This document shows positions 3 through 14,715 of a DNA stretch of 64,000 nucleotides, piece after piece (position 1 is the stretch's first letter; each line of letters starts with the position of its first letter). The notes beneath the pieces were generated by a model that worked only from the letters and a program-made list of their open reading frames with translations, was not told where the DNA came from and made no database searches. The stretch comes from Planctomycetota bacterium (GTDB lineage: Bacteria; Planctomycetota; JAJSAM01; JAJVHW01). Where the stretch lies: positions 407,979 through 471,978 of the forward strand of contig CBDFJG010000001.1 of the NCBI GenBank assembly GCA_965248445.1, in the 5' to 3' direction. Position numbers and translations under genes: made by a program.

Positions 3-2438
3 GGCGACGCCAAGTCCGCGTTCGAGATCTACGAGCGCATTCACGAGTTCCTGCCGACCGACCTCTCGGCGGCGGACCGGATGATCGAGATCTACGCGAT
101 GAACCCGGACGGCCGGGAGTCGCGTGCGCCGGAGATGATCCGGCTGGGCACCGAGCTGGCGGAGATCTACACCGACCTCGCCCGCCCGAGCCGCGCGATC
201 CAGGTCCTGCACCGCGTCGTGTCCCTCAAGCCCGACGATGAGGCGCTGCGTCAGCGGCTCATCGACGTCTACATGGCCACGGGCATGACCGGCGAGGCGA
301 TCGCGGAGTACGAAGCGATCGCCGAGACCGCACTCGCGACCGGCAACGACAAGCACGCCGAAGCGGTGTTCCGCAAGGTGCTGTCGATCGACCGCGGACG
401 GGACGACATCAACGGGCGCCTCAACAGGATCCTGCTGAAGCGCACGCGCGCCAAGCGGTCGAAGCGGCGCGCGCTGCTGGTCATCCTGCTCATCGTGCTC
501 GGCGTGACCGCGAGCGCCGGTGCCTGGCACTTCTGGACGATCTACAGCACCAAACGCACGCAGCAGAGCGTGCAGGCCACGTCGCAGCTCGCGAAGGTCG
601 GAGAGCAGTACGCAGCCACGTTCGATGAACTGCGTGGCGAGGTCGCCAAGCTGGCGGCGCGACTGGGCGATCCGCCAGCGCTGCTCGAGCTGCGTCAGCA
701 GCGGAGCGGCGAGTGGACGGAGCTGGTCACGCGCGCAAATCAGGCCGCGCAGGCGTACCTGTCGGTCGCCGAGGAGTTCCCCGGCACCGAGGCGGGCGAG
801 CACGCACTCACCGAGGCGGAGGCACTGCGCAGCCACCTCGAGGGCGTCAAGGGCCTGGAAGCCGACGCGGAGGAACTGCTGACCGCACGGGCCAAGCAAC
901 TGCTCATGGACGCCGAACGACTCGATCGCGAGACGACGCCCACGCCTGCCCTGCTCGAGGCGTTCGAGGCCGCCCGCGCATACGCCGAGCACTGCCCTGC
1001 CTTCATCGCCACCGAGCGCGGGCAGCGTCTCATGGACTGGGAGAAGGACCTCCGCCACAACCTGGCGGCGTTCGAAAGCGCGAAGGAGACCGTCGAGGAC
1101 CTGATGGCAGGCGGCGATGCCGACGGCGCGTTCCAGCGCGCCATGACCTACCTGTCGAACTACCCGCCGATGGACCTGGCAGCCCAGGTCGGCATCCCCG
1201 TGAACGTGACGACGCTGCCTGCAGGGGCCAAGGTGCTCATCAACGGCGAGGAGCGCGGCTTCACGAACGGCTGGGTGCTGATCTCGCCCCGCGCAGACTC
1301 CAAGATCGAACTGAAGCGCTCGGGCTACGAGACCTTCGAGATCCAGCGCGACGCAATCACCGAGCCGAACCCAAGAGAACTGCGCAAGCTGATCGATAGG
1401 GAGATCACGGCGACGCTCCAGAAGAGCGTCGCGTTCCAGTCCGCACCCATCGGGGCGGAGCTGACGTCGGTGACCGTCATCGGCAACCGCGTGATCGTCG
1501 GGACGCGCGGGGACAAGCAGGAGATGATCCGCGTTCCGGGCGGTCAGTTCGAGTGGGCGCTCCGGACACCGAACCCCGGCGGCGTCGTCGCACGTCCTGC
1601 AGTGAGCGGGAGCGTCGTGGCGATCCCGGGCGTCGACGGCGTCGTGTACTTCTTCGACGTCGACTCTCGCGATCCGCTCGGCTCCGTGAAGGTCGAGGGG
1701 CAGATCTGGAGCGATCCGGTCCTCGCGAGCGGACGCCTGGTAGTCGCTGATCTGTCCGGGCGCGTGACCGGCATCGACATGGCGAGCCGCGAGGTGGCGT
1801 GGCGCTATCCCGCCGACGGCGCGGCGCCTGTCGGGGCGGGGTTCCGCGCAAGTCTCGTCGCGGTCGCGGACCACGTGTTCGCGGCAACGGTCGACGGCGA
1901 GGTACATGTCATCGACGCGCGCAGCGGGCGCCGCACCGAGCGCATCGATCTGGACCCGAAGGACGACGCGGGTGCGGTGCAGGGCATCGCCGTGACGTCT
2001 TCTCAGATCATCGCGGTGACGGACCGCGGCAACTTGGTTCGCGCAGAGCGCGGTACGGGACGTGACCTCGGCCGAGTGAGCCTCTCGATCGCGCCTCGTG
2101 GCGGACCGCTGCTACAGGGCGAGACGGTGTTCGTCGTCGGCCGCTCCGGCCGCGTACGGGCCATCTCGCTGGCGACCGGCGCGGTCCAGGCGTCCCGGGA
2201 TCTGGGCGCCGACGTGCGCGCGTCCGCGGCGATCCTGAACGGGCTGGTCGTGATCGGCGACGCCGCCGGTCGGCTGACGGCCCTGCAGTGCGCCGGCAAC
2301 CAGATCGAGCAGGTCTGGCAGTACAGCGTCCCGAGCCGGACCGGTGCGGCGATCGGGATCGTCACGACGCCCGTGCTCCACGGGGATCGGATCGTCTTCG
2401 GGGCGGCGGATCGCCGCGTCCACGCGATCTCGAGGTAG
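3..2438 (+). CDS. 5'-partial large membrane protein: N-terminal TPR repeats, one TM helix, PEGA domain, C-terminal PQQ/BamB-like beta-propeller repeats
   Basis: The reading frame is open from base 3; the ATG at 81 is internal, so the gene continues upstream of the window. TPR-like helical repeats. Hydrophobic stretch RRALLVILLIVLGVTASAGAW. PEGA-like motif (GWVLISPRADSKIELKRSGYETFEI). Repeated W/G beta-propeller blades in the C-terminal half. Confidence 0.6.
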   Translation, partial: GDAKSAFEIYERIHEFLPTDLSAADRMIEIYAMNPDGRESRAPEMIRLGTELAEIYTDLARPSRAIQVLHRVVSLKPDDEALRQRLIDVYMATGMTGEAIAEYEAIAETALATGNDKHAEAVFRKVLSIDRGRDDINGRLNRILLKRTRAKRSKRRALLVILLIVLGVTASAGAWHFWTIYSTKRTQQSVQATSQLAKVGEQYAATFDELRGEVAKLAARLGDPPALLELRQQRSGEWTELVTRANQAAQAYLSVAEEFPGTEAGEHALTEAEALRSHLEGVKGLEADAEELLTARAKQLLMDAERLDRETTPTPALLEAFEAARAYAEHCPAFIATERGQRLMDWEKDLRHNLAAFESAKETVEDLMAGGDADGAFQRAMTYLSNYPPMDLAAQVGIPVNVTTLPAGAKVLINGEERGFTNGWVLISPRADSKIELKRSGYETFEIQRDAITEPNPRELRKLIDREITATLQKSVAFQSAPIGAELTSVTVIGNRVIVGTRGDKQEMIRVPGGQFEWALRTPNPGGVVARPAVSGSVVAIPGVDGVVYFFDVDSRDPLGSVKVEGQIWSDPVLASGRLVVADLSGRVTGIDMASREVAWRYPADGAAPVGAGFRASLVAVADHVFAATVDGEVHVIDARSGRRTERIDLDPKDDAGAVQGIAVTSSQIIAVTDRGNLVRAERGTGRDLGRVSLSIAPRGGPLLQGETVFVVGRSGRVRAISLATGAVQASRDLGADVRASAAILNGLVVIGDAAGRLTALQCAGNQIEQVWQYSVPSRTGAAIGIVTTPVLHGDRIVFGAADRRVHAISR

Positions 2439-2540: not shown

Positions 2541-3758
2541 GTGAACCGAGGCGGAATCCCGATGGATGAGCGTCCCGGATGTCGGGAAAGGAGGCGGGCT
2601 GCCGTGAACTTGCTCGAACGCATCAAGAGAGCGCGACAGATCCATACGCTGCGGCGTGCGGTCAAGCGCTCCCCCTCCCCCAAGACGTTCGGGACCCTGG
2701 CGGAGCGGTTCCTGGCACTCGGCGAGCCCGAGCGCGCCCTGACCGTCGCGCAGGAGGGCCTGAGCCACTTCCCGGACTCCGAGCGGCTGTTGCACGTCCG
2801 CCTGTTCGTGAAGAAGAAGTCGCTCGCAGACGACATCCGGAAGCTGCGCCGCGACATCGCGCGCCGCCCGAGCCCGCTCTCGTACACGCAGCTCGCGCAG
2901 ATCTACCGCGAGCTGGGTAACGAGGACGAGGCGCTCGAGATGGCGCACGAGTGCGCGGAGCGCTTCCCGCTGAACGAGAACCCGTACCTGATCCAGGCCG
3001 AGATCCGTCTGAGCCGCTTCCTCCGCGACCTGGTCGCCAAGGACGCGGTTCTCGCGGAGCAGGCGCTCCGCAAGGTCGTGCGGCTCAACCCGCACCACGT
3101 CGGCGCGCACCTCCTGCTCGCGCAGGTCTACTACCTGGTCGGCGGCGCCGGCGAGACCCGCCGGCAGCTGCGCGCCGTGCTCACGACGATGCCCACCGCG
3201 AAGGAGGTTCAGACCTTCTTACAGCGTCTGCACGTCACGGAGTCGGACCCCTCGGACACCACGCCGTTCGAGGAACTCGCCCGTGCCGTCGAGCAAGAGG
3301 GCGCGTTCGCAGCGGCGCCGGACTCCTTCCCCACTCTGCACCCGCAAGCGCCTTCGGTGCCCTCCCAGTCGGACGCACGCCTCGACATGGAGAACCTGAT
3401 GCAGGACGTCGCGCGCCTCGGCCGCGAGCCCGGCGTGCGCAACTCAATCCTGCTCGACCGTGACGGAGAGATCTTGGCGGACTTCTCCGACGCAATCGCC
3501 CTGTCGCGCCGTCAGTTCGCGGAGCTCATCCGCAGCATCCGCGAGGTGGCAGATGACGCCAGCAAGCGAATGGACGCGGGCGCGCTCGTGCGCGCCGAGA
3601 TCGAGGGTCCGGGCGGCAGCATCACAGTGGTGCGCGTTCGCTCACTGACCATTGCGCTCCTCTTCGGTGATCCCATGCGACCTGATCGCGCTTGGGAGCT
3701 GCTGCAGGGGTTCATCGCGCGGCATCTGAGGACCGGCAAGGAGACGATCCATGCGTAA
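2541..3758 (+). CDS. TPR-repeat protein fused to a C-terminal roadblock/LC7 (MglB-like) domain
   Basis: N-terminal TPR-like helices. The C-terminal ~110 aa (ILLDRDGEILADFSD...ITVVRVRSLTIALLFGD) match the roadblock/LC7 fold. Start is ambiguous (2541 or 2562). Confidence 0.55.
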   Translation: MNRGGIPMDERPGCRERRRAAVNLLERIKRARQIHTLRRAVKRSPSPKTFGTLAERFLALGEPERALTVAQEGLSHFPDSERLLHVRLFVKKKSLADDIRKLRRDIARRPSPLSYTQLAQIYRELGNEDEALEMAHECAERFPLNENPYLIQAEIRLSRFLRDLVAKDAVLAEQALRKVVRLNPHHVGAHLLLAQVYYLVGGAGETRRQLRAVLTTMPTAKEVQTFLQRLHVTESDPSDTTPFEELARAVEQEGAFAAAPDSFPTLHPQAPSVPSQSDARLDMENLMQDVARLGREPGVRNSILLDRDGEILADFSDAIALSRRQFAELIRSIREVADDASKRMDAGALVRAEIEGPGGSITVVRVRSLTIALLFGDPMRPDRAWELLQGFIARHLRTGKETIHA

Positions 3759-4104
3759 CATCCTCAAGCGCCTCAACGACGTCCCGGGAGTGAAGGGCAG
3801 CCTTGTCGTCACGAAGGACGGCATGGTGATCGCCGCACACGTCACCCGGAACCTCGAGGAAGACCTCGTGGCCGCCATGGCCGCGGGAGTCATCCAACAG
3901 ACGCGTCGCGCACTCGAGAAGTACGGGCAGCGGCACTTCGTTCGCTTCACGCTCGTCGCGAGTCACGGGAAGCTCATTCTCACGGACGCTGGTCCGGCGT
4001 ACCTCGTTGCGCTGATGGACCGGAACGTGGAACTGGGACCGGTCGAGATCGAGATCGAGTCGGCCGCCATGCGGATCCGCAATCAGGGAGAGATCCGCAT
4101 CTAG
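3751..4104 (+). CDS. mglB: MglB-like roadblock/LC7 protein (GTPase-activating partner of MglA)
   Basis: 117 aa with a roadblock signature (KGSLVVTKDGMVIAAH...LVALMD). AAGGAG RBS upstream. Sits immediately upstream of the MglA gene; its start overlaps the previous gene by 8 nt. Confidence 0.7.
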   Translation: MRNILKRLNDVPGVKGSLVVTKDGMVIAAHVTRNLEEDLVAAMAAGVIQQTRRALEKYGQRHFVRFTLVASHGKLILTDAGPAYLVALMDRNVELGPVEIEIESAAMRIRNQGEIRI

Positions 4105-4122
4105 CGGTTCGGAGACAAAGAC

Positions 4123-5289
4123 ATGGTTCAAATCAACTTCGCGCTCCGAGAGGTCAACTGCAAGGTCGTGTACTACGGTCCGGGCATGAGTGGCAAGACC
4201 ACCAACCTCGAGATCGTGCACCAGAAGGCACCTGAGTCGAACAAGGGCGAACTCACCTCCATCGCAACGGAAGGTGACCGCACGCTGTTCTTCGACTTCA
4301 TGCCGCTCGACCTCGGGACGATCGCGGGCATGCGCACGCGGTTCCAGCTGTACACGGTGCCGGGTCAGGTCTACTACAACTCGACTCGCAAGCTGGTGTT
4401 GCAGGGCGTTGACGGCGTCGTGTTCGTCGCCGACTCCTCCGCGAGCAAGATGGACGAAAACCTCGAGTCGCTCGAGAACCTCAAGAACAACCTCGCCGAG
4501 TACGGCAAGGACATTCGCGAGCTCCCGATCGTCATCCAGTGGAACAAGCGCGACCTGCCGGACGCGCTCCCCGTCGAGCAACTGAACGCGAAGATCAACT
4601 CGTGGGGCTGCCCCACGTTCGAGGCCGTCGCGATCACCGGCGAGGGCGTCTTCCCGACACTCAAGTGCCTGTCCGGGATGGTCCTCGAGACCTTGAACCG
4701 CGATCAGCGCGAGGCGCCCGGCGCCCCGGGCCGGCCTCAGGCGACGAAGCTCGCCGCGCCGGCCGCCCAGGCGGCTCCTGCAGCCCCCGCGGTCATCGCC
4801 GCACCAGCGCCTGTGGCGCCGGTCGCGGCGCAGCCGGCGGTCGCAGCCGCTTCGGCGGCCTCCCCCATCCGGCAGGGCTTCGGTAACACCATGGGCGGTT
4901 CTCCGCCTGCTCCGCCGGTCGGCGTACCCAGTCGCGCGGGGCGGTTCGGTGGCGGCGGAGGCAGCGTATTCGATGAGATCAACGAGCAGGCCGCAGAGCA
5001 GCCGGCGCGCCCGGCCGCGTCCCCCGGCCTCGTCGGTGGTGAAAACGAAGGACCCTGGCAGCAGCAGCAGCAGAAGCAGAAGCAGCAGCGGCGCCAGGTA
5101 GACGCTTCGCCGCTCGAGACGTCGACCATTCGCACCACGCCCAAGAGCTCGGCGGGTGACGCACGGCCGCATCTGCGTATCAAGCAGGAGAAGTCGGTCC
5201 CGTGGGTGGCGGTCACACTCGGAGCACTCATCGTCATCGCGGTCGGCATCATCCTCTTCACGACCGGGCTCGTGAGCCTGCCTGTTTAG
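4123..5289 (+). CDS. mglA: MglA-family Ras-like GTPase with ~190-aa low-complexity C-terminal extension ending in a TM helix
   Basis: Residues 1-195 align closely with M. xanthus MglA (INCKVVYYGPG-MSGKTTN P-loop, RTLFFDF, TVPGQ switch II, NKRD). The extension is Ala/Pro-rich, contains a QQQQQKQKQQ run and ends in the hydrophobic stretch WVAVTLGALIVIAVGIILFTTGLV. Confidence 0.8.
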   Translation: MVQINFALREVNCKVVYYGPGMSGKTTNLEIVHQKAPESNKGELTSIATEGDRTLFFDFMPLDLGTIAGMRTRFQLYTVPGQVYYNSTRKLVLQGVDGVVFVADSSASKMDENLESLENLKNNLAEYGKDIRELPIVIQWNKRDLPDALPVEQLNAKINSWGCPTFEAVAITGEGVFPTLKCLSGMVLETLNRDQREAPGAPGRPQATKLAAPAAQAAPAAPAVIAAPAPVAPVAAQPAVAAASAASPIRQGFGNTMGGSPPAPPVGVPSRAGRFGGGGGSVFDEINEQAAEQPARPAASPGLVGGENEGPWQQQQQKQKQQRRQVDASPLETSTIRTTPKSSAGDARPHLRIKQEKSVPWVAVTLGALIVIAVGIILFTTGLVSLPV

Positions 5290-5309: not shown

Positions 5310-5825
5310 ATGGACAGCCACACACTGCGAAATGACCGCCTTGTCTTCTACGAAGACCTGATTCGCGACGTCAACCGGCTGCTTCGGGAGTTCCTGAAGC
5401 TGTCCGGCGCGAACTGCGTCTTCCTCGTGGACAAGGAAGGTCACATGGTCACCCGTCAGGGCGTGACCCGCGACATCGACATGGACACCATCTCCGCCCT
5501 CGTCGCCGGCTCGTTCGCCGCGACGAAGGAGATGGCGCGCCTGCTCGGCGAAGACGAGTTCTCCGTCCTGTTCCACCAGGGCAAGACGGACAACATCCAG
5601 CTCTCGCTGGTGGGCGACAGAACCCTCCTGACCGTGATCTTCGACGAGGCCACCACGGTCGGCATGGTCCGCCTGTACGCGGCCGAGACCGCGAAGCGAC
5701 TCGGCGAGGTCTTCCGCAAGCACGAGATGGAACAGCGCCGCAACCCGAACAAGACGAACCCGGAGCTCGCTCAGGGCTTCGTGGGCAGCGCCAAGGACAA
5801 GCTGGACGACCTGTTCGGCGGCTGA
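5310..5825 (+). CDS. roadblock/LC7 domain protein (MglC/MglB-like)
   Basis: 171 aa with a roadblock core (ANCVFLVDKEGHMVTRQG...LTVIFD). GGAG RBS. Followed by a strong hairpin terminator. Confidence 0.6.
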   Translation: MDSHTLRNDRLVFYEDLIRDVNRLLREFLKLSGANCVFLVDKEGHMVTRQGVTRDIDMDTISALVAGSFAATKEMARLLGEDEFSVLFHQGKTDNIQLSLVGDRTLLTVIFDEATTVGMVRLYAAETAKRLGEVFRKHEMEQRRNPNKTNPELAQGFVGSAKDKLDDLFGG

Positions 5826-5916: not shown

Positions 5917-8900
5917 ATGCGACGGATCGCCACCGCGCTTCTCCTGCTCCTCTCCGGCATCGCGCACGCCGGAGGAGGCCCGTCCGACACTGTCGTGCTC
6001 GTCAACGACGACAGCCCCGACGGACAACGGGTCGCGGCGCACTACCTCGTCGCGCGCGACATCCCCCCCACTCACCTGTGCCGCGTGCGGTCTTCGACCG
6101 ACGCAACCGTTCCCGTCGCCGACTTCGTGCGGGACGTGGTCGATCCCCTGCGCCGCTTCCTGGCCGAGCGGCAGCTCGAGGACCGAGTCCGGTTCCTCGT
6201 CCTCACCCAGGGCCTGCCGATCCGGCTGCGCGCACCCGGCGGCATGGTCTCGAGCGCCGCCGCGCTGGAGCTGTTGGACACGCCCATCTGCGGCAGCGAC
6301 GGCGCGCGTATGCCGCGGTATCAGAACGCCTACCTGTCGGGCGCCGCGCCGCGGACGACTCTCGACGAGTCCGGCCGGCTGATCCTGGTCACTGCCCTCA
6401 TCTCCTCCACCGCCGACGAGGCGATCGCGCTCATCGACCGCAGCGTCGCCGCCGACGGGACGGCGCCGAAGAAGACACTCTTCGTGTTCCAGGATGCGCG
6501 GGGCAACGCGGCGAACCGGAACCCGGGCTACGACCCGGCGCGCGCGGAACTCGAGAAGCTCGGGCACAAGTCCGAGCACGTGCCCGCCGGCGCCGACGAG
6601 GTCCGTGAGCGAAAGCGTGTGATGGGCTACATGTCGGGAGGCTCGTACTCCCGCCTCTCGGTCGCCGGAGTGGACGACAACGAGTATCTGCCGGGCGCGC
6701 TCTGCGACATGCTCCAGAGCTTCGGCGCGGTGCCGGCGAACTTCGTTCCCGGGGGGAAGGGCAAACAGTTCCCGATCACGCACATGATCCGCGCGGGAAT
6801 CACCGGAGTGCACGGCGCGGTGGCAGAGCCGTACAACATCACATTCCCGTCGGCGGATCTGTTCACGCCGTACGTCCACGGCTTCACGCTGGCCGAGACG
6901 TTCCACCAGAAGCTGCCGTTCCGCTACTGGATGAATCTCGTCCTCGGCGATCCGCTCTGCGCTCCGTACGCCAAGCGGCCGAAGGTCGTGGTGTACGGAG
7001 CTCCCCGCACGGGCTGGAGCGGAGAGGTCTCGTTCGTGGCCCGTGCGAAGGGCGCCGAGAGCATGGCCGTGTTCGTAGACGGCGTTCCGGTGACGGAGGG
7101 AGCGGGCGACGAGCTGAACGTCGTGATCGATACCGCGCGGTTCCAGGGCGGCAAGCGCCACGTCCTGATCGAGGCGACCGGTGCCGGCGAGGCGGAGCCG
7201 CGGGGCTGGACAGTCTTGCAGCCAACGTTCGTCAACGAGAACGTCGGAGTGGATCAGCCCGCATCCGCACCTCTGCCCGCCGGACTGCGGCTCGAGGTAC
7301 CGGACCAAGTGCAGGCCGGCGAGAGCTTCGAGGTGCGCCTCGTCGCGCTTTCAGAAGACGGGACGCCCTTCGCCCCAGGCGCACCGACGGCGTGGCTGTC
7401 CTCGGCGAAGCCGCCGGTGCGATGGGCCCGCGGCATCCCGGTGGACGGTACGCCCCACACACTGCGCCTGGTCAAGTCCGGAGACGTGACGTTCCGCGCG
7501 CAGATCCCCGGCGCGCACGCGGTCGCGGATGCGGTCGTGCGGGTCGCGTCGGCGGAGATGCTGAACGTGACCACACCGGTGTCCCGCGTCGCGCTCGGGC
7601 AGGTGTCGGACCTGCCGCTCCAGGCGGTCGACCGGTTCGGCAACATCGCGGAGGACTACTCCGGTCCGGTGCGCGTTGAAGCTCCCGGCAATCCCGGGGC
7701 CGACGTGGGCCGGACGGCGGAGATGGTGCGCGGAAGGGGCGTGATCCGAGACGTTCTGATCACGCACAGCGGACCGCGGCGTCTGGTGTTCCGGGACGGC
7801 GGAGGAGCGACCGTCTCCGGTGCGCAGGAGGGGATCCGCGTCGCGCGAGGAGCCGTGCGTGCGTGGGTGGTGTCGCAACCGTCGCGCGGCGACGACGCCG
7901 CGGCGCTCTTCAAGTCGGGGGCCAAGCTGCTGCCGCAGCGCCACGGCGACGTCGTGGACGGCACACTGTTCGTGCGCCATCGGGACGGAGACGACCAGAT
8001 CGATCTCTCGACCGGGTTGCGCGACGGTGATTCCGTCGTCGCCGTCGCGTTCGTGCACGCGCTCGCGGACACGGACGTGAAGGTCAACCTCGCCGCCAAG
8101 GGCCGGGTCGTGGTCGCCCTCGACGGGAAGATCGTGCACGACGGCGTCGTGGACGGCAGCGACCCAGCCAACACGAAGAAGCGCTCGACCGTCGCGAAGC
8201 TGAAGATCTCGAAGGGACGCCACCGGCTCTCCGTGATCACGGAGCGGCGCGGGCGGGCTGCGTTCGCGTTGGAACTGCAGGGCGGCGGCGAAGAGGGGCG
8301 GCTCGTGCGGATCGTTGCGGACATGGACGAGGAGCCGTCGACGATGTGTCTCTCCGGCCGGGTGCTGCGCCCCGCCGGCGCCCGCGGCGCGGCGGGCGTA
8401 TCCGTCGAACTGGCCGTCGGCGACGCGAAGCACACGACGAAGAGCGACGCGGCGGGGCTCTACTGGTTCGCGGACGTGCCGGCGGGTGCGGCGGTAGTGA
8501 CCGCTGGCAGCGCACCGGTCCGCACCGTCACGGTGGACGACGCGAACGTCACGGGCGTCGACATCCGTCTGCCCGATACGAAGGAGCCGACGGTTACGCT
8601 GCCCGCCGGGAGCGACGGCAGGCACGTCGGCTCGCTCCTTGTGCTCACCGCGGACGTGAAGGACGACGGCAAGGTGCGGCAAGTCCGTCTCCTTCTCGGT
8701 GGAGACGAAGCCGCGCCCCCACTCACCGCTCCGCCGTGGCGCTTCGAGGTCGATGTCGCGGGGCGCGACCGCGGTCCGCTCGCACTCGAGGTCCGCGCGA
8801 GCGATGCGTCCGGCAAGGAAGGCACGAGCGGCGAGATCAAGGTGCGCCTGGTCAACGACAAGAGCGGGCCGAAGGTGACGCTCTCCGGTCTCTCCGCGAA

Positions 8901-9132
8901 CGCGCTGCTCAGGAAGACCGCAAGGCTCGTTGCGAAGGTGAGCGATCCGATCGGCGTACGGAGCGTCTCGTTCTCGGTGGACGGCGCGCCGGGCGACACG
9001 CTGACCGCGGCGCCCTACGAGATCGCGCTGAACCCCGCCGCGTTCGAGAAGGGGAAGCACCTGGTCGAGATCGTGGCGAGGGACACGGACGGACACGAGA
9101 CAAAGAAGAAGCTGCCATTCCGCGTCCGGTGA
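5917..9132 (+). CDS. large secreted protein (signal peptide; TIGR03790-like N-terminal region; Ig-like/Big and carboxypeptidase-regulatory-like domains)
   Basis: 1071 aa. N-terminal signal peptide MRRIATALLLLLSGIAHA. CarboxypepD_reg-like segment (SGRVLRPAGARGAAGVSVELAVGDAKHTTKSDAAGLYWF). Repeated beta-rich segments. Confidence 0.6.
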   Translation: MRRIATALLLLLSGIAHAGGGPSDTVVLVNDDSPDGQRVAAHYLVARDIPPTHLCRVRSSTDATVPVADFVRDVVDPLRRFLAERQLEDRVRFLVLTQGLPIRLRAPGGMVSSAAALELLDTPICGSDGARMPRYQNAYLSGAAPRTTLDESGRLILVTALISSTADEAIALIDRSVAADGTAPKKTLFVFQDARGNAANRNPGYDPARAELEKLGHKSEHVPAGADEVRERKRVMGYMSGGSYSRLSVAGVDDNEYLPGALCDMLQSFGAVPANFVPGGKGKQFPITHMIRAGITGVHGAVAEPYNITFPSADLFTPYVHGFTLAETFHQKLPFRYWMNLVLGDPLCAPYAKRPKVVVYGAPRTGWSGEVSFVARAKGAESMAVFVDGVPVTEGAGDELNVVIDTARFQGGKRHVLIEATGAGEAEPRGWTVLQPTFVNENVGVDQPASAPLPAGLRLEVPDQVQAGESFEVRLVALSEDGTPFAPGAPTAWLSSAKPPVRWARGIPVDGTPHTLRLVKSGDVTFRAQIPGAHAVADAVVRVASAEMLNVTTPVSRVALGQVSDLPLQAVDRFGNIAEDYSGPVRVEAPGNPGADVGRTAEMVRGRGVIRDVLITHSGPRRLVFRDGGGATVSGAQEGIRVARGAVRAWVVSQPSRGDDAAALFKSGAKLLPQRHGDVVDGTLFVRHRDGDDQIDLSTGLRDGDSVVAVAFVHALADTDVKVNLAAKGRVVVALDGKIVHDGVVDGSDPANTKKRSTVAKLKISKGRHRLSVITERRGRAAFALELQGGGEEGRLVRIVADMDEEPSTMCLSGRVLRPAGARGAAGVSVELAVGDAKHTTKSDAAGLYWFADVPAGAAVVTAGSAPVRTVTVDDANVTGVDIRLPDTKEPTVTLPAGSDGRHVGSLLVLTADVKDDGKVRQVRLLLGGDEAAPPLTAPPWRFEVDVAGRDRGPLALEVRASDASGKEGTSGEIKVRLVNDKSGPKVTLSGLSANALLRKTARLVAKVSDPIGVRSVSFSVDGAPGDTLTAAPYEIALNPAAFEKGKHLVEIVARDTDGHETKKKLPFRVR

Positions 9133-9903: not shown

Positions 9904-10034
9904 CGTGGCCTCCGTGCGTTGTCCCGACTGGGTCTCGTTCGAGGTCAACCACCCCGCCCATCGTTCGGACGCCGTGAGGAACCGGGGTGTTCCAGCGGTC
10001 GTCCGTGGGCGGAGAAGGAGATATCCTCGCCGCC

Positions 10035-11825
10035 ATGCCCAAGCTGCACAAGACCGCCACGACCCTCTCGCTCCTGGCCCTCCTGCTGGCCTCGGGGCCG
10101 ACGATCGCCACCTCGATCGCCCGCGCCGACGGCAAGGGCTCCGACATCGGAGGCCCCGAACGCGCCGCGGTGCGCAATGACCGGACGCGCTTCGGACTCG
10201 ATCCCGCGGCGATGTCGGACACCGAGAAGGCGGAGCGACTGGCCTCCATCGAGGTGGAGTACGAGGGGCTGCGCCGCAACCAGGATCTCGTCCAGGTCCG
10301 CACCCGCCGCAACCGGATCACATTCGTCGGCGAGATGAAGTACCCACCGGCCGCGGAGTTCCTCAAGAAGGCGTTCACGACCGACCGCGACGTGCGTGCG
10401 CGAGCAGCGGCGATGGCGGCGGTCGGCAAGTGCGGCGATCCCGACGCGATCGAGTTCGTGGTCAAGAAGGTTCTCGCGAACGCGCGCAAGGATCCCGTGT
10501 ACGTCGCTCAACTCGGCCGGATGTTCGCCGAGGTCGAGAACCAGCAAGCCGCCGAGTGGATCGTCACGCGCCTGAGGCAAAAGGACCAGACGACCCTCGC
10601 GAACGTTGTCGAGGCCGTCGGCTACGGGGGCTCCCCCACGGCGGTGCCGGCGCTGGTGGCTCTGATCGAGAAGACCAAGAACGCGCCGGTCAAGTTCGAG
10701 GCGTTGCGCGCGCTCGGACGCTGCGGTAGGTCCGACGCGATCCCGACACTCCTGCTCTACATCGACGACTCCGACTGGCGCATGCGCATGGCAGCCGCCG
10801 AGGGTCTCGGGTACACGGAAGACGCGAACGTGATCGACCATCTCGCGCCGCTCATCGCGCGTCACGAGGAACCGATCGTGGTCGAGACGGCGGCCGAAGC
10901 CGTCGCGACGCTCGGGACCCCGGCGGCTGTCGAACCACTGATCAAGTGCCTCGACGTCGGGCGGCTCCGCGCGCGGCAGAAGGCACGCAAGGGCCTTGTG
11001 AACATCGCCCGCCGCGACTACCGCATGGACAAGGACTATCACGTCGATCCGAACGCGTGGAGATCGTGGTGGCGCAAGATCAAGAGCGGCATCGACCCCG
11101 ACGACCCGACGGTCTCGGGCCGCGACACCGCGTCCTACTTCACTTTCCCGGTGCACAGCGACCGCGTGCTCTTCATCCTGGACGTATCCGGATCGATGGA
11201 GTGGCCGAACGCGCCGCGGGCCGCCAACATCAAGCCATCCGCCTGGAGAGGCCGCCGCATCGACCTGGCGCACAGCGAGCTCTTCGCGGCACTGCGGGGG
11301 CTCGCCAAGCAGAACAAGGGCCGCATCAAGAAGAAGGGCAGCAAGGGCCGGACCGGCGACCTGCCGTACGCACCTGACGAGAACGGCGTGGAGCCGCCGA
11401 CCCTCTTCAACGTCGCCACGTTCGCCGGGCACGTCCCCTCCTGGCAGAAGGAGCCCGTCCTCGCCAGCGAGGAGAACGTCGAGGCCGCCATCAAGTGGCT
11501 GACTGTGCAGTTCCCGCGCGGCGGCACGAACACACACGGCGCGCTCGAGTTCGCGCTCGCGCAGCCCAACGTCGATACCGTGTTCTTCCTCTCCGACGGC
11601 GTGCCGTCGGTCGGCAAGATCGAGGAGCCGGAGCACATCCTCGCCGACGTGCGCCGCATGAACCGTTTCCGGCGCATCACGATCAACACCGTTGCGCTCA
11701 TCGTCGGTCGCTCCTCCATCGAGAAGGCGCTCAAGTACGAGGACCCCGAGGAGATGGCGGACTTCATGAACCGCATCGCCACGGAGAACTACGGGAAGTT
11801 CGCCGACGAGTCGCGGCCCCAATAG
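10035..11825 (+). CDS. secreted HEAT-repeat (PBS-lyase-like) protein with C-terminal von Willebrand factor A domain
   Basis: Signal peptide. Repeated HEAT-like units (e.g. AAAMAAVGKCGDPDAI). VWA core with MIDAS (LFILDVSGSM ... GGTNTHGALEFAL ... FFLSDGVPS). GGAGAAGGAG RBS upstream. Confidence 0.65.
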   Translation: MPKLHKTATTLSLLALLLASGPTIATSIARADGKGSDIGGPERAAVRNDRTRFGLDPAAMSDTEKAERLASIEVEYEGLRRNQDLVQVRTRRNRITFVGEMKYPPAAEFLKKAFTTDRDVRARAAAMAAVGKCGDPDAIEFVVKKVLANARKDPVYVAQLGRMFAEVENQQAAEWIVTRLRQKDQTTLANVVEAVGYGGSPTAVPALVALIEKTKNAPVKFEALRALGRCGRSDAIPTLLLYIDDSDWRMRMAAAEGLGYTEDANVIDHLAPLIARHEEPIVVETAAEAVATLGTPAAVEPLIKCLDVGRLRARQKARKGLVNIARRDYRMDKDYHVDPNAWRSWWRKIKSGIDPDDPTVSGRDTASYFTFPVHSDRVLFILDVSGSMEWPNAPRAANIKPSAWRGRRIDLAHSELFAALRGLAKQNKGRIKKKGSKGRTGDLPYAPDENGVEPPTLFNVATFAGHVPSWQKEPVLASEENVEAAIKWLTVQFPRGGTNTHGALEFALAQPNVDTVFFLSDGVPSVGKIEEPEHILADVRRMNRFRRITINTVALIVGRSSIEKALKYEDPEEMADFMNRIATENYGKFADESRPQ

Positions 11826-11841
11826 AGATGGCACAGTAGCG

Positions 11842-13365
11842 ATGCAGCCGCGATACGCAGGACCCCGCCAGATTCGCGGAGCCGGCGGCGCGCTCCTGAT
11901 CGCCGCCATCGCGAGCATCGCGCTCGCGGCGGACAGTCCCCGGTTCAAGGCGCTGAAGAAGGAGTACGGCGCGCTCAGTCGGAATCACGACGACGAGGCC
12001 AGCCGGGCCCGCCGGCTCGTCCTTCTCGAGATGTTCGACGTGCGCGAGGAGTCCGGCGCCCGCAAGCTGCTCAAGAAGGCGCTCGGCGACGAGAAGCGCA
12101 TCGACAACCGGGTGGCGGTCGTCCATCTGCTGGCGGGCTGCGGCGACCCGAAGGCGTTCACCAGCATGCTCTCCGGCCTGAAGAAGGAGCGCTTTCGCGC
12201 ACCGGTGCTCGCGATCGGGCGCGGACTCGGCTTCACCCCCGACGCCGCCCGCGCCGATGTCTCGACGGCGGCCCTGAAGGCCTTGAAGAGGGCGAAGGAG
12301 GATCTCCGTTCCGCCCTTCTCGAGGGCCTCGGAGAACTCGGAGCCGCCGAGGCGACACCCGCCCTGCTGGCCTACGAGCCGGACGATACGGTCGAGGGCT
12401 TCTACCGCAACCGCAGCATCGGACTGTGCAACGGTGAGGGCGCCGAAGCGTTCCTGCTGACGGAGTTGGACAACGCCTACCCCGCGTATCGCCGCGGGGC
12501 CGTGCAGGGCCTGGCCGCCATCGGCAGCGACACGGCGCTCGCGGCGCTGACCAAGACGGCGCTACACGATCTCGACTCGCGCGTCGTGCGCGCCGCCGCG
12601 GAGGCGCTGGCTGCCGCCGGCCACAAGGCCGCGGCCCCCGAGATGGCCAAGGAGCTGCATCGCTCCCACTGGCGGCGCACGCGCGAGGTCCTGCGTCAGT
12701 CACTGAAGACCCTGCTCGGCAAGGACCTCGGTTACGACGCCAAGAAATGGGAGGCCGCGGCCGCGGGCAAGCCCTCGACACCCGGCGAACTGCCGAAGCA
12801 ACCTGAGTTCTTCGGCGTCCCGGTCGCCACCAACTCGGTGCTCGTCATGCTCGACACGTCGCGCTCGGTCCAGTGGATGGGCCGCCTGGAGCGCGAGATC
12901 GAGGGGTGCCAGGAGTTCATCACGGGGCTCCCTGACGACGCGTTCTTCAGCGTCTGGAACGTGACCCGCAGCTCACAGAAGTACGAAGAGGGCATGGTCG
13001 CCGCCGAGTCCCACCGCGACAGCGCGATCGCGTGGCTCGGCGAACAGAAGTCCGGGCGGGGCTGGCTGTACGTCAAGCGGGCGCTCAAGGAGGCCGTCTC
13101 GGACCTGCCGACGGTGGACACGATCGTGTTCGCCACCGACTCGCATCCGTGGGGTGAGACCGCGGAAGAGACGTCCCTCGAGACGATCGAGACGTTCCGA
13201 CACCTGAACCGGGACACCGACGTCCGTCTCGTCATCGCTCTCGTCATGCCCGGCGGCCGCTTCGAGCAGAGCGAACGCAGCGAAGTCGAGATCGAGGAGC
13301 GCATCGAGTTCCTCACCCAGCTCGCCGAGGAGTCCGGCGGCACGTTCGTGCACGTAGACGAGTAG
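11842..13365 (+). CDS. paralogous HEAT-repeat + VWA-like protein
   Basis: Same architecture as the upstream gene: hydrophobic N-terminus, HEAT-like repeats, and a VWA-like domain with a DxSxS motif (LVMLDTSRS). 17-nt spacing from the previous gene. Confidence 0.6.
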   Translation: MQPRYAGPRQIRGAGGALLIAAIASIALAADSPRFKALKKEYGALSRNHDDEASRARRLVLLEMFDVREESGARKLLKKALGDEKRIDNRVAVVHLLAGCGDPKAFTSMLSGLKKERFRAPVLAIGRGLGFTPDAARADVSTAALKALKRAKEDLRSALLEGLGELGAAEATPALLAYEPDDTVEGFYRNRSIGLCNGEGAEAFLLTELDNAYPAYRRGAVQGLAAIGSDTALAALTKTALHDLDSRVVRAAAEALAAAGHKAAAPEMAKELHRSHWRRTREVLRQSLKTLLGKDLGYDAKKWEAAAAGKPSTPGELPKQPEFFGVPVATNSVLVMLDTSRSVQWMGRLEREIEGCQEFITGLPDDAFFSVWNVTRSSQKYEEGMVAAESHRDSAIAWLGEQKSGRGWLYVKRALKEAVSDLPTVDTIVFATDSHPWGETAEETSLETIETFRHLNRDTDVRLVIALVMPGGRFEQSERSEVEIEERIEFLTQLAEESGGTFVHVDE

Positions 13366-14715
13366 CTACTCGCCGTCCGACCGCAGCGTGAGCCTGCCCG
13401 GTCGGTCGGCGACGACGCGCGCCGCCCGGCTCCCCCACCATGCGGCGAACACGGCGGGCTCCCGCCCGAGAAGCGGCAGGAACTCCTCCGCCAAACCGTC
13501 GTCGAGGACGCGCGCGACGGCCTCGCGCACGTGCGCCTCCCGCTCCGGGGTGCGCCACACCTGATCGGCGGCGACGCGCAGCAGCGCGGGGTGGCCGGCC
13601 GCCGCGAGCGGAGGCAGCGCGTCGCGCACGGAGCGGGGAGCTCTCTCGGGACGCCCCTCGAATCCGCCGGGAACGGGCGCCGACAGGCGCTCCCACGCAG
13701 CGAGCACCAGCTCGGCGCGCGGGAAGGAGGGGCGGTGACCTGCGGCGAGGCCATGCAGCGGGCGAGCCGCATCCACGTTCGCGAGGGGCGCTACGGTCCA
13801 GAATGCCAGCTTCGTGGCGCGCGCCGACCGGGGCAGCGGCTTGCCGTCCTTGCGCGGTGCGAACCACGAGTTGCGCGCGTGGTAGTAGAGACCCGTGCTC
13901 GACGCCGACGATGAGGCGCGGGCGAGAACGAGCATCCGTGAAGGTCCGGCAGGCAGTCCCGCCGGGGCGTCGGCCGTGAGCTGCGCCGTCGTCTCCACGG
14001 GCACGAAGCCACGATCCGGCAGATGCACTTCGGCCAAGCGGTGGAACGTCGAGTCCACCGCCCGTCCGTTGTATCCGCCGCGCAAGAGGGTCCCGCCGGT
14101 CCACCGCGCCGGGATGCCCAGGCGCCGGCAGATGGCCACGAACGCGAACGTGCTCTCGCTGCACGAGCCTTCGCCCGCCAGGAGAACGTCGGGAGCGGAG
14201 CGCCAGCCGCCGTCCAGCTCGTAGCTGACCGATTGACGCACGTGCGCAAGCGCGGCGTAGGCCAGGGCGTGCGGCGAGTCGTCGTCGGCAGCCGCGCGCA
14301 CCGCCGTCGCCGCGGCGCGGACGGCGTCGTGGTCGAGCCCGAGGATCTCGTCGTCTGCGAGGCACGCCGCCAGCTCGGCCTGGCTCGGCGCGGCGGCGCC
14401 TGAGTCGTCGAACTCGATCTCCGCGAGCCACGCGAACGTGACCGCGTCCCCGGCAGCCAGCACATCGACCACGGCATGGGCCGTCCAGCCATCTCCGGCA
14501 CTGCGCCGCAGCTCGAAGTCATGCGGGGAGAGCCGGACCCAGTGCACGCGCTGGCCGTGCCCGGACTGCGGTAGGACGAGATCGCACGCGATGCGTCGCA
14601 GGGTCGCCGGCGCGTCGTTCCGGACCGTGTCCTCGAAGCGGACCAGGTAGCGCTCACCGGCGTGGCCGTGCGCCGTCAGGACAAGGAGTAGGGCAGCGGA
14701 CAGCGGCCAACGCAC
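13366..14715 (-). CDS. secreted transglutaminase-like cysteine protease superfamily protein
   Basis: GTG start. Signal peptide MRWPLSAALLLVLTAHGHA. Transglutaminase core motif GEGSCSESTFAFVAICRRLGIPARWTGG. Lies 9 nt downstream of the last mrp gene on the same strand. Confidence 0.6.
   Translation of the reverse strand: MRWPLSAALLLVLTAHGHAGERYLVRFEDTVRNDAPATLRRIACDLVLPQSGHGQRVHWVRLSPHDFELRRSAGDGWTAHAVVDVLAAGDAVTFAWLAEIEFDDSGAAAPSQAELAACLADDEILGLDHDAVRAAATAVRAAADDDSPHALAYAALAHVRQSVSYELDGGWRSAPDVLLAGEGSCSESTFAFVAICRRLGIPARWTGGTLLRGGYNGRAVDSTFHRLAEVHLPDRGFVPVETTAQLTADAPAGLPAGPSRMLVLARASSSASSTGLYYHARNSWFAPRKDGKPLPRSARATKLAFWTVAPLANVDAARPLHGLAAGHRPSFPRAELVLAAWERLSAPVPGGFEGRPERAPRSVRDALPPLAAAGHPALLRVAADQVWRTPEREAHVREAVARVLDDGLAEEFLPLLGREPAVFAAWWGSRAARVVADRPGRLTLRSDGE

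Follow-up and report, generated by a model that had tools for sequence, protein, structure and literature searches.

Gene organization and domain architecture of MglA-TM

The DNA analysed here is a 64,000-nt stretch (the window) of the genome of a Planctomycetota bacterium (GCA_965248445.1). It carries a gene for an MglA-type small GTPase that continues in frame past its G domain into a low-complexity linker and a C-terminal transmembrane (TM) helix; we call this protein MglA-TM. Very probably it is built of three parts: the G domain (residues 1-193), the linker (194-361) and the TM helix (362-380) with 8 further residues. The features of the gene are as follows (positions in the window; + is the forward strand).

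4123-5289 (+): MglA-TM gene, 388 aa plus stop, ATG start, stop at 5287-5289
4123-4701 (+): Group 1 MglA G domain, residues 1-193, PDB matches with E 1e-72 to 1e-73
4177-4200 (+): P-loop GPGMSGKT, residues 19-26, matching GxxxxGK[ST]
4276-4284 (+): R53/T54 within D52-R53-T54, numbering as in Myxococcus xanthus, invariant in 118 homologues
4354-4368 (+): TVPGQ (T78-V79-P80-G81-Q82), residues 78-82, G3 motif in place of DxxGQ, invariant in 118 homologues
4543-4554 (+): NKRD (N141-K142-R143-D144), residues 141-144, G4 motif NKxD, invariant in 118 homologues
4702-5205 (+): low-complexity linker, residues 194-361, 168 aa, rich in Ala, Pro, Gly and Gln, with no predicted structure
4942-4986 (+): weakly conserved linker motif RFGGGGGSVFDEINE, residues 274-288
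5058-5089 (+): (CAG)n/AAG repeat encoding QQQQQKQKQQ
5092-5133 (+): short linear motif RQVDASPLETSTIR, residues 324-337
5164-5205 (+): basic juxtamembrane segment RPHLRIKQEKSVPW, residues 348-361
5206-5262 (+): TM helix VAVTLGALIVIAVGIILFT, residues 362-380
5263-5286 (+): uncharged, putatively extracytoplasmic tail TGLVSLPV, 8 residues

The reading frame was unbroken from 4123 to 5289, with no in-frame stops and no frameshift near position 4710, the place at which the original prediction had considered that an error might end the protein at about 195 aa. Across the tail, the annotated frame had the highest GC content at third codon positions (GC3) of the frames (0.80). No N-terminal signal peptide was found, and the protein opens on the first MglA strand. 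An open reading frame (ORF) of 486 aa with an Arg/Leu/Gly-rich translation spans most of the MglA gene on the opposite strand (3712-5172). It was rejected as a gene and regarded as a high-GC artefact, its relatives grouping only as antisense shadows.

The G domain

The first ~195 residues had been described as a complete, apparently active MglA, and the PDB search agrees with this. Residues 1-193 were aligned end to end with MglA of Thermus thermophilus (3t12_A, E 1.6e-73) and of M. xanthus (6h17_A, E 2e-72), with an identity of 63-65% to both, and all of the motifs that define Group 1 MglA are present. After MglA, the nearest PDB matches were the eukaryotic Arl, Arf and Sar1 proteins (E ~1e-5). 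Invariance within the G domain was read from an alignment of 118 homologues (A2), in which residues G19, G21, G24, K25 and T26 of the P-loop showed no variation.

Linker, repeat and linker motifs

The linker consists of 20% Ala, 14% Pro, 11% Gly and 10% Gln and has a net charge of +5 (+0.03 per residue); no cysteine was found in the tail. Structure prediction was carried out twice with AlphaFold2. The first run, based on 20 near-identical sequences, gave a mean pLDDT (predicted local distance difference test) of 50 and a poor G domain. It was superseded by the second run with 118 sequences (mean pLDDT 62), in which the G-domain core was well formed (pLDDT 75-95 for residues 91-200) and the switch regions remained low. 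In the second model, residues 201-349 were unstructured (pLDDT ~40) except for a weak helix over the poly-Q/K run. Both the composition and the model are thus in line with the disordered tail proposed originally.

The CAG/AAG repeat noted in the original prediction was located by Tandem Repeats Finder at 5058-5089, with a period of 3 and 10.7 copies. The poly-Q/K run that it encodes is an insertion in this genome only, and the 19 aligned close homologues read WQPP or WQQQ at this place. The insertion agrees with repeat slippage without proving it, so that the evidence of the alignment is circumstantial. Two related loci (L009:6001-7443 and L024:3991-5607) encode very long linkers of near-perfect peptide repeats, that of L009 being made up of many copies of 'AAPAHPVPGVPAT'. 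Such repeat-built linkers indicate that linker length in the MglA-TM family changes by repeat expansion.

In the alignment of the window protein among 20 close homologues (A1), the G domain was nearly invariant, while the linker drifted freely in length and sequence. Two motifs were recognized within it. The segment at residues 274-288 corresponds to IRxGSxhDQM in the relatives of alignment A1, and a loose pattern of this kind was matched in 41 of 57 close-clade proteins, which is weak evidence. The segment at residues 324-337 includes RQVDASPL (residues 324-331), the form that the RxVDAxPL motif takes in the window protein. Its clade consensus, [RK]x[VI][DE]A[TSQ]PL, occurred in 56 of the 57 close-clade proteins at a fixed distance of 33-41 residues ahead of the juxtamembrane Trp and in none of the 58 proteins of the wider clade; A328, P330 and L331 were invariant in alignment A1.

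Among 66 proteins, linker length ranged from 88 to 323 aa, and Ala, Pro, Gly, Ser, Gln and Thr together made up a median of 73% of the residues. Linker charge depended on the clade: the linkers of the window clade were about neutral, and those of the wider clade were strongly basic (median +0.15 per residue). Between clades, the linker sequences could not be aligned.

C-terminal anchor and topology

The C-terminal TM anchor, also proposed originally, is supported by hydropathy and by the predicted structure. Residues 362-380 (Kyte-Doolittle 19-mer mean 2.75) form the only segment of the protein with a 19-mer mean of at least 1.6 and lie 8 residues from the C-terminus. AlphaFold2 predicted a helix at 361-380 with pLDDT 93-96. 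The Hessa insertion-scale sum for residues 361-379 was about -3 kcal/mol, a rough and approximate value. Thus, MglA-TM has one hydrophobic helix less than ~30 residues from its C-terminus and neither another TM segment nor a signal peptide, as is characteristic of tail-anchored proteins.

The helix is preceded by the basic juxtamembrane segment defined in alignment A1, which ends in the invariant W361; the juxtamembrane Trp was found in all 57 close-clade proteins. In the 66 proteins, the median net charge was +2 in the 12 residues ahead of the helix and 0 behind it, and the value before the helix exceeded that after it in 55 of 66. According to the positive-inside rule, this bias fits an N-in/C-out orientation, in which the G domain is cytoplasmic. 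The nucleotide dependence of the G domain, which needs the cytoplasm, agrees with the same orientation, and we infer this topology for MglA-TM.

Conservation across Planctomycetota

A scan of one genome per species gave 403 relatives, of which the best 80 were analysed as loci; all 80 come from metagenome-assembled genomes (MAGs) of Planctomycetota. The MglA gene was complete in 66 of these loci, and in 64 of the 66 its product measures 306-538 aa and has a helix at the C-terminus. A similar picture emerged from the 120 best database homologues: almost all were 300-400 aa long, and ~108 had a hydrophobic helix as their last element, 2-11 residues from the C-terminus. Those with no terminal helix were mostly fragments. 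The original prediction had supposed a lineage-specific extension, which is right but understated, for the extended form is the norm among a large set of uncultured Planctomycetota, always within the same conserved cassette. Its other concern, that the C-terminal part might belong to a separately translated gene, is answered by the fusion in 64 of the 66 complete orthologues.

The two complete orthologues without the anchor were L075:6001-6909 and L060:6001-6624. The tail of L075 is Arg/Pro-rich, as from an Ala-rich GC region read out of frame, and L060 ends at 207 aa near a contig end; both look like products of assembly frameshift or truncation. Because the fused design recurs in the remaining 64 orthologues from independent assemblies, it is not an assembly artefact. 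To judge by these sequences, the anchored design is real and conserved across many uncultured Planctomycetota species. The retention of the anchor while the linker varies from 88 to 323 aa is consistent with the selection pattern expected of a tether.

The five-gene cassette and its neighborhood

The MglA-TM gene is the fourth of five genes that are tightly packed on the same strand. The other four are listed below.

81-2438 (+): bitopic membrane protein, 785 aa, with a cytoplasmic N-terminal tetratricopeptide repeat (TPR) region, a TM segment, a periplasmic coiled region, PEGA and a PQQ_2/BamB-like beta-propeller
2541-3758 (+): TPR and Roadblock/LC7 fusion protein, 405 aa, Pfam TPR_14 (6e-13) and Robl_LC7 (2.3e-6, residues 289-371)
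3751-4104 (+): single-domain Roadblock/LC7 protein, 117 aa, Pfam Robl_LC7 (6e-15)
5310-5825 (+): MglB, the Roadblock-type partner, 171 aa, matching M. xanthus MglB (6izw_B) over its full length (E 2.7e-26)

In the 785-aa protein, Pfam matches to PQQ_2 (1.9e-23), TPR_19 and PEGA were found. Its one hydrophobic segment (residues 131-149) is preceded by the basic stretch KRTRAKRSKRR. At least 31 of the 80 loci had its C-terminal part immediately upstream of the cassette at the threshold used. The TPR-Roadblock gene was found in its place in 78 of 80 loci, and its 3′ end overlaps the start of the next gene by 8 nt. This next gene, for the 117-aa Roadblock protein, was found in 77 of 80 loci and forms one ORF family across 79 of 81 sources; its product gave only generic Roadblock matches in the PDB. 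The mglB gene starts 20 nt after the MglA stop and was directly downstream in every locus extending far enough. The NCBIfam MglB model matched its product with 4e-27, which is under the equivalog cut-off of the model. The order TPR-Roadblock, Roadblock, MglA, MglB was maintained in practically all of the 80 loci.

The recurrent genes outside the cassette were housekeeping ones, for methionyl-tRNA synthetase (MetRS) and acyl-CoA dehydrogenase, and the cassette is therefore self-contained. As housekeeping genes, these two were rejected as members of the system; several neighboring 'families' proved to be MetRS antisense shadows. No pilus, gliding or chemosensory genes were found in the cassette or its conserved neighborhood. 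The ends of the operon were not defined by a scan for promoters and terminators, whose results did not exceed chance. Rfam showed no RNA gene within the window from which its taxonomic place could be read.

Directly after mglB, a gene at 5917-9132 (+) encodes a secreted 1071-aa protein with Big_7 and CarboxypepD_reg domains. Since only the seven closest loci (L003-L007 and neighbors) have it in this place, it was not counted in the core and probably represents an addition of this clade or simply a neighbor. Further downstream are two tandem paralogous genes for proteins with HEAT repeats and a VWA domain (9987-11825 (+) and 11842-13365 (+)), followed on the opposite strand by a gene for a transglutaminase-like protein (13366-14715 (-)). 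In related loci, neither the pair nor the transglutaminase-like gene showed a link to the MglA cassette.

Extended MglA proteins in other lineages

A search of 1.84 billion cluster representatives was made with only the G domain as query, and the best 150 (50%-identity clusters) were examined. All of these were longer than canonical MglA (207-936 aa), and the G domain was always N-terminal. Canonical MglA of Thermus and Myxococcus, at ~250 bits, fell just under the best 150, so the result does not mean that all MglA proteins are extended.

Among the other 149 representatives, a strict test assigned a terminal TM helix to 44, and this type was also present in Ca. Schekmanbacteria. Another ~45 ended in a basic amphipathic 'KKGFFxRLF' after a Pro/Ala/Gln-rich linker; this type belongs to Fibrobacterota. 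Such MglA proteins of 430-760 aa were found in Fibrobacterota MAGs (Chitinivibrionales, Chitinispirillaceae and Fibrobacter; P0172, P0181, P0203, P0232 and ~40 more). Ahead of the C-terminal 'KKGFFxRLF', they carry a conserved 'FFTSVNTDRxRKxxRPVNPK' motif. The C-terminal motif is close to the membrane-targeting sequence of E. coli MinD, KGFLKRLFGG. This likeness is one of sequence only, as the hydrophobic-moment values were low and are uninformative on such short peptides. Two different membrane-binding devices end equally variable linkers in different phyla, and we regard this as the strongest evidence at hand that membrane attachment is the function for which the tail is selected.

Other fusions were also present. 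A 936-aa protein of Ca. Uabimicrobium amorphum, a planctomycete with a phagocytosis-like process (P0226), combines an MglA G domain, 62% identical to that of the window protein, with pentapeptide repeats and an Ion_trans_2 channel. In P0241, P0159, P0193 and P0125, the G domain is fused to a FliN C-ring domain (FliMN_C, 5.7e-23), a SurA_N-like region or TPR_20. Searches with other extended MglA proteins for a cultivated host gave MAG names only.

Proposed function and alternative explanations

Based on the above results, we consider it likely that MglA-TM is a genuine tail-anchored, membrane-confined MglA/MglB switch. Several points weigh against this reading. The TM helix is called from hydropathy, AlphaFold2 and conservation. 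The overall confidence of both AlphaFold2 models was low (mean pLDDT 50 and 62), and low pLDDT by itself is weak proof that the linker is disordered. All named carriers of the tail-anchored form are MAGs, including the Ca. Schekmanbacteria sequence. With the threshold applied, only 31 of 80 loci showed the beta-propeller gene, and it is from domain content and synteny that the roles given below to its product and to the two extra Roadblock proteins are guessed. In addition, no second MglA was found within the 64,000-nt window, a result that covers the window only.

We suggest the following model for the anchored MglA, to which we give an even chance of being correct. A flexible linker anchored in the inner membrane would hold the G domain on the cytoplasmic side, and the GTPase cycle would run as in other Group 1 MglA/MglB pairs, with MglB as the GTPase-activating protein. 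RomR/RomX, MglC and Ragulator serve as models for the two extra Roadblock proteins, which are candidates for an exchange factor or a scaffold. Only at the membrane would the GTP form recruit or activate its partners, among which the TPR proteins of the cassette are plausible ones. One of the cassette partners probably docks on the RxVDAxPL motif, which lies ~35 residues from the membrane. The bitopic protein may couple the switch to something in the periplasm or envelope. As the TM helix is not released, any relocation would take place within the plane of the membrane, so that lateral diffusion and capture there, and not a passage through the cytosol, would determine where MglA-TM is found.

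Two other explanations deserve attention, and we regard both as unlikely. According to the first, the disordered tail itself does the work, as a multivalent scaffold or condensate, by binding polyanions or acidic lipids, or as an autoinhibitor folding onto the G domain, and the helix only fixes its place. The two conserved motifs inside the otherwise drifting linker of the close clade, the strongly basic linkers of the wider clade and the second motif that Fibrobacterota keep ahead of their membrane motif would fit such a role. However, the sequence and charge of the linker differ between clades, the charge of the window protein being close to neutral; RxVDAxPL is confined to the close clade in our comparison, and AlphaFold2, at low confidence, docked no tail segment on the G domain. 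An active tail is in any case compatible with a tail-anchored switch and not exclusive of it.

The second explanation, to which we attach the same low probability, is that the cassette represents a local version of the Myxococcus/Thermus polarity module serving type IV pili or polar motility, in which the anchor is of little consequence. The close relationship of the G domain to MglA of both genera and the true MglB alongside are in its favor, and TPR proteins are known as MglA partners, namely SgmX in Myxococcus and Bd2492 in Bdellovibrio. Against it stand the lack of pilus, gliding or chemosensory genes in the cassette and its conserved neighborhood and the strict conservation of the anchor across species, which argues for its importance.

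It is highly improbable that the C-terminal hydrophobic segment serves for sorting or cleavage, in the way of PEP-CTERM, GlyGly-CTERM or LPXTG-like signals, or is removed after targeting. Such signals likewise place a hydrophobic helix at the extreme C-terminus, and several C-terminal sorting signals are in use in Planctomycetota. But they belong to exported proteins with a signal peptide, and the N-terminus here is the G domain; they also need a signature motif and a basic end, whereas TGLVSLPV is uncharged and the basic residues precede the helix. MglA-TM thus has the helix of a PEP-CTERM-type protein and lacks its signal peptide and basic C-terminal cluster, and an NCBIfam scan gave no sorting-domain match at E <= 0.01.

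Finally, fusion of a 195-aa mglA to a downstream membrane-protein gene by a frameshift, a missed stop or a chimeric join, for which the long spurious ORFs of high-GC genomes (such as that at 3712-5172) and the two damaged-looking orthologues could be cited, is effectively refuted by the frame without stop or break, by GC3 peaking in this frame through the tail, by the same fusion in nearly all complete orthologues and in ~108 of 120 database homologues, and by the start of mglB 20 nt past the MglA stop, as in relatives.

In the accepted mechanism, MglA is a soluble polarity GTPase that leaves one pole of the cell and rebinds at the other. A membrane-confined MglA would place the same switch in another spatial regime, that of two-dimensional diffusion and permanent membrane residence, in a phylum with unusually elaborate membranes. 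The view of the original prediction that a tether would alter the localization cycle is a reasonable one. The five-gene cassette offers a defined set of candidate partners for it.

Comparison with known systems

The closest known system is Group 1 MglA. In the census of Wuichet and Sogaard-Andersen (2015), this group was defined with an intrinsic arginine finger, R53-T54 in M. xanthus (PMC4316618). MglA-TM shares with it the P-loop, R53, T54 and TVPGQ with Q82 at the same numbering, NKRD and an adjoining mglB, that is, one within four genes. The canonical proteins are soluble and single-domain, with ~195 aa and less than 240 aa, whereas the window protein has 388 aa, adding 195 residues of linker and TM anchor. 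The gene order also has its own features: mglA precedes mglB, and two extra Roadblock genes lie upstream. Because it is neither soluble and single-domain nor under 240 aa, the protein was filed as an architectural variant, and it is best regarded as a previously undescribed architecture on a Group 1 G domain. Planctomycetes are absent from the Group 1 lineages listed in the census, and all sequences of more than 240 aa were discarded from it (PMC4316618). The removal of these sequences probably explains why the class went unnoticed. No description of a membrane-anchored MglA was found in full-text searches that covered few of the subscription journals.

In its topology, MglA-TM is like the tail-anchored proteins, which include ElaB, YqjD, DjlC and Flk of E. 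coli and the eukaryotic Miro GTPase. It shares with them a single TM helix near the C-terminus, the lack of a signal peptide and, by prediction, a domain facing the cytoplasm. A bacterial small Ras-like GTPase with this topology was not found described in the literature searched. The amphipathic sequences of MinD and FtsA have counterparts in the MglA relatives of Fibrobacterota and not in the window protein. As the latter has a full TM helix, its binding should be irreversible, unlike that of the reversible MinD type.

The homologues are often named SR-beta in the annotation pipeline of the Joint Genome Institute (JGI). We rejected this name as an annotation artefact, since no Pfam SRPRB match was found at E <= 0.01. 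There is a likeness, in that SR-beta is a membrane-anchored Arf-like GTPase pairing with a longin/Roadblock-like domain (SRX of SR-alpha). However, SR-beta is eukaryotic, is anchored by an N-terminal helix and has neither the arginine finger nor the TVPGQ of MglA, whereas the anchor of the window protein is C-terminal. The Rag GTPases on Ragulator also combine a membrane small GTPase with several Roadblock-fold proteins, as does the cassette with its three Roadblock domains. In that system, the scaffold LAMTOR1 and not the GTPase is lipid-anchored, and the Rags carry a Roadblock domain of their own, so the resemblance is conceptual only.

It is also possible to compare MglA-TM with the eukaryotic Rab, Ras and Rho GTPases, in which a disordered, fast-evolving hypervariable region (HVR) likewise extends the C-terminus and ends in a hydrophobic anchor. 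Their anchor is a prenyl lipid, while that of the window protein would be a peptide helix at the end of a linker 3-8 times longer. No prenylation motif (CaaX, CC or CxC) was found at its C-terminus, which reads ...GLVSLPV. Extraction of the type performed by the guanine nucleotide dissociation inhibitor (GDI) is not expected, so attachment should be permanent. The resemblance is one of analogy, not of homology. A study of Asgard Rab proteins from 2024 placed the origin of C-terminal anchoring extensions of small GTPases in eukaryogenesis (PMC10933270). A bacterial anchored MglA would be an analogous solution and bears on this claim.

Finally, we put forward, as a tentative suggestion that may well prove too broad, that membrane-tethered MglA is a widespread and overlooked class of bacterial small GTPases, invented or exchanged several times, and that the Planctomycetota cassette is a transmembrane signalling platform. 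If so, the anchor would differ by lineage: Planctomycetota and Ca. Schekmanbacteria would rely on a TM helix and Fibrobacterota on an amphipathic helix of the MinD kind, and further lineages would use even a FliN domain or an ion channel. In the platform, a periplasmic beta-propeller receptor and the Roadblock set would control a membrane-fixed GTPase. Such a class would be a bacterial functional counterpart of the Rab-HVR or Rag-Ragulator logic, and the GTPase design of a disordered tail plus a membrane anchor would then predate eukaryotes or be independent of them.

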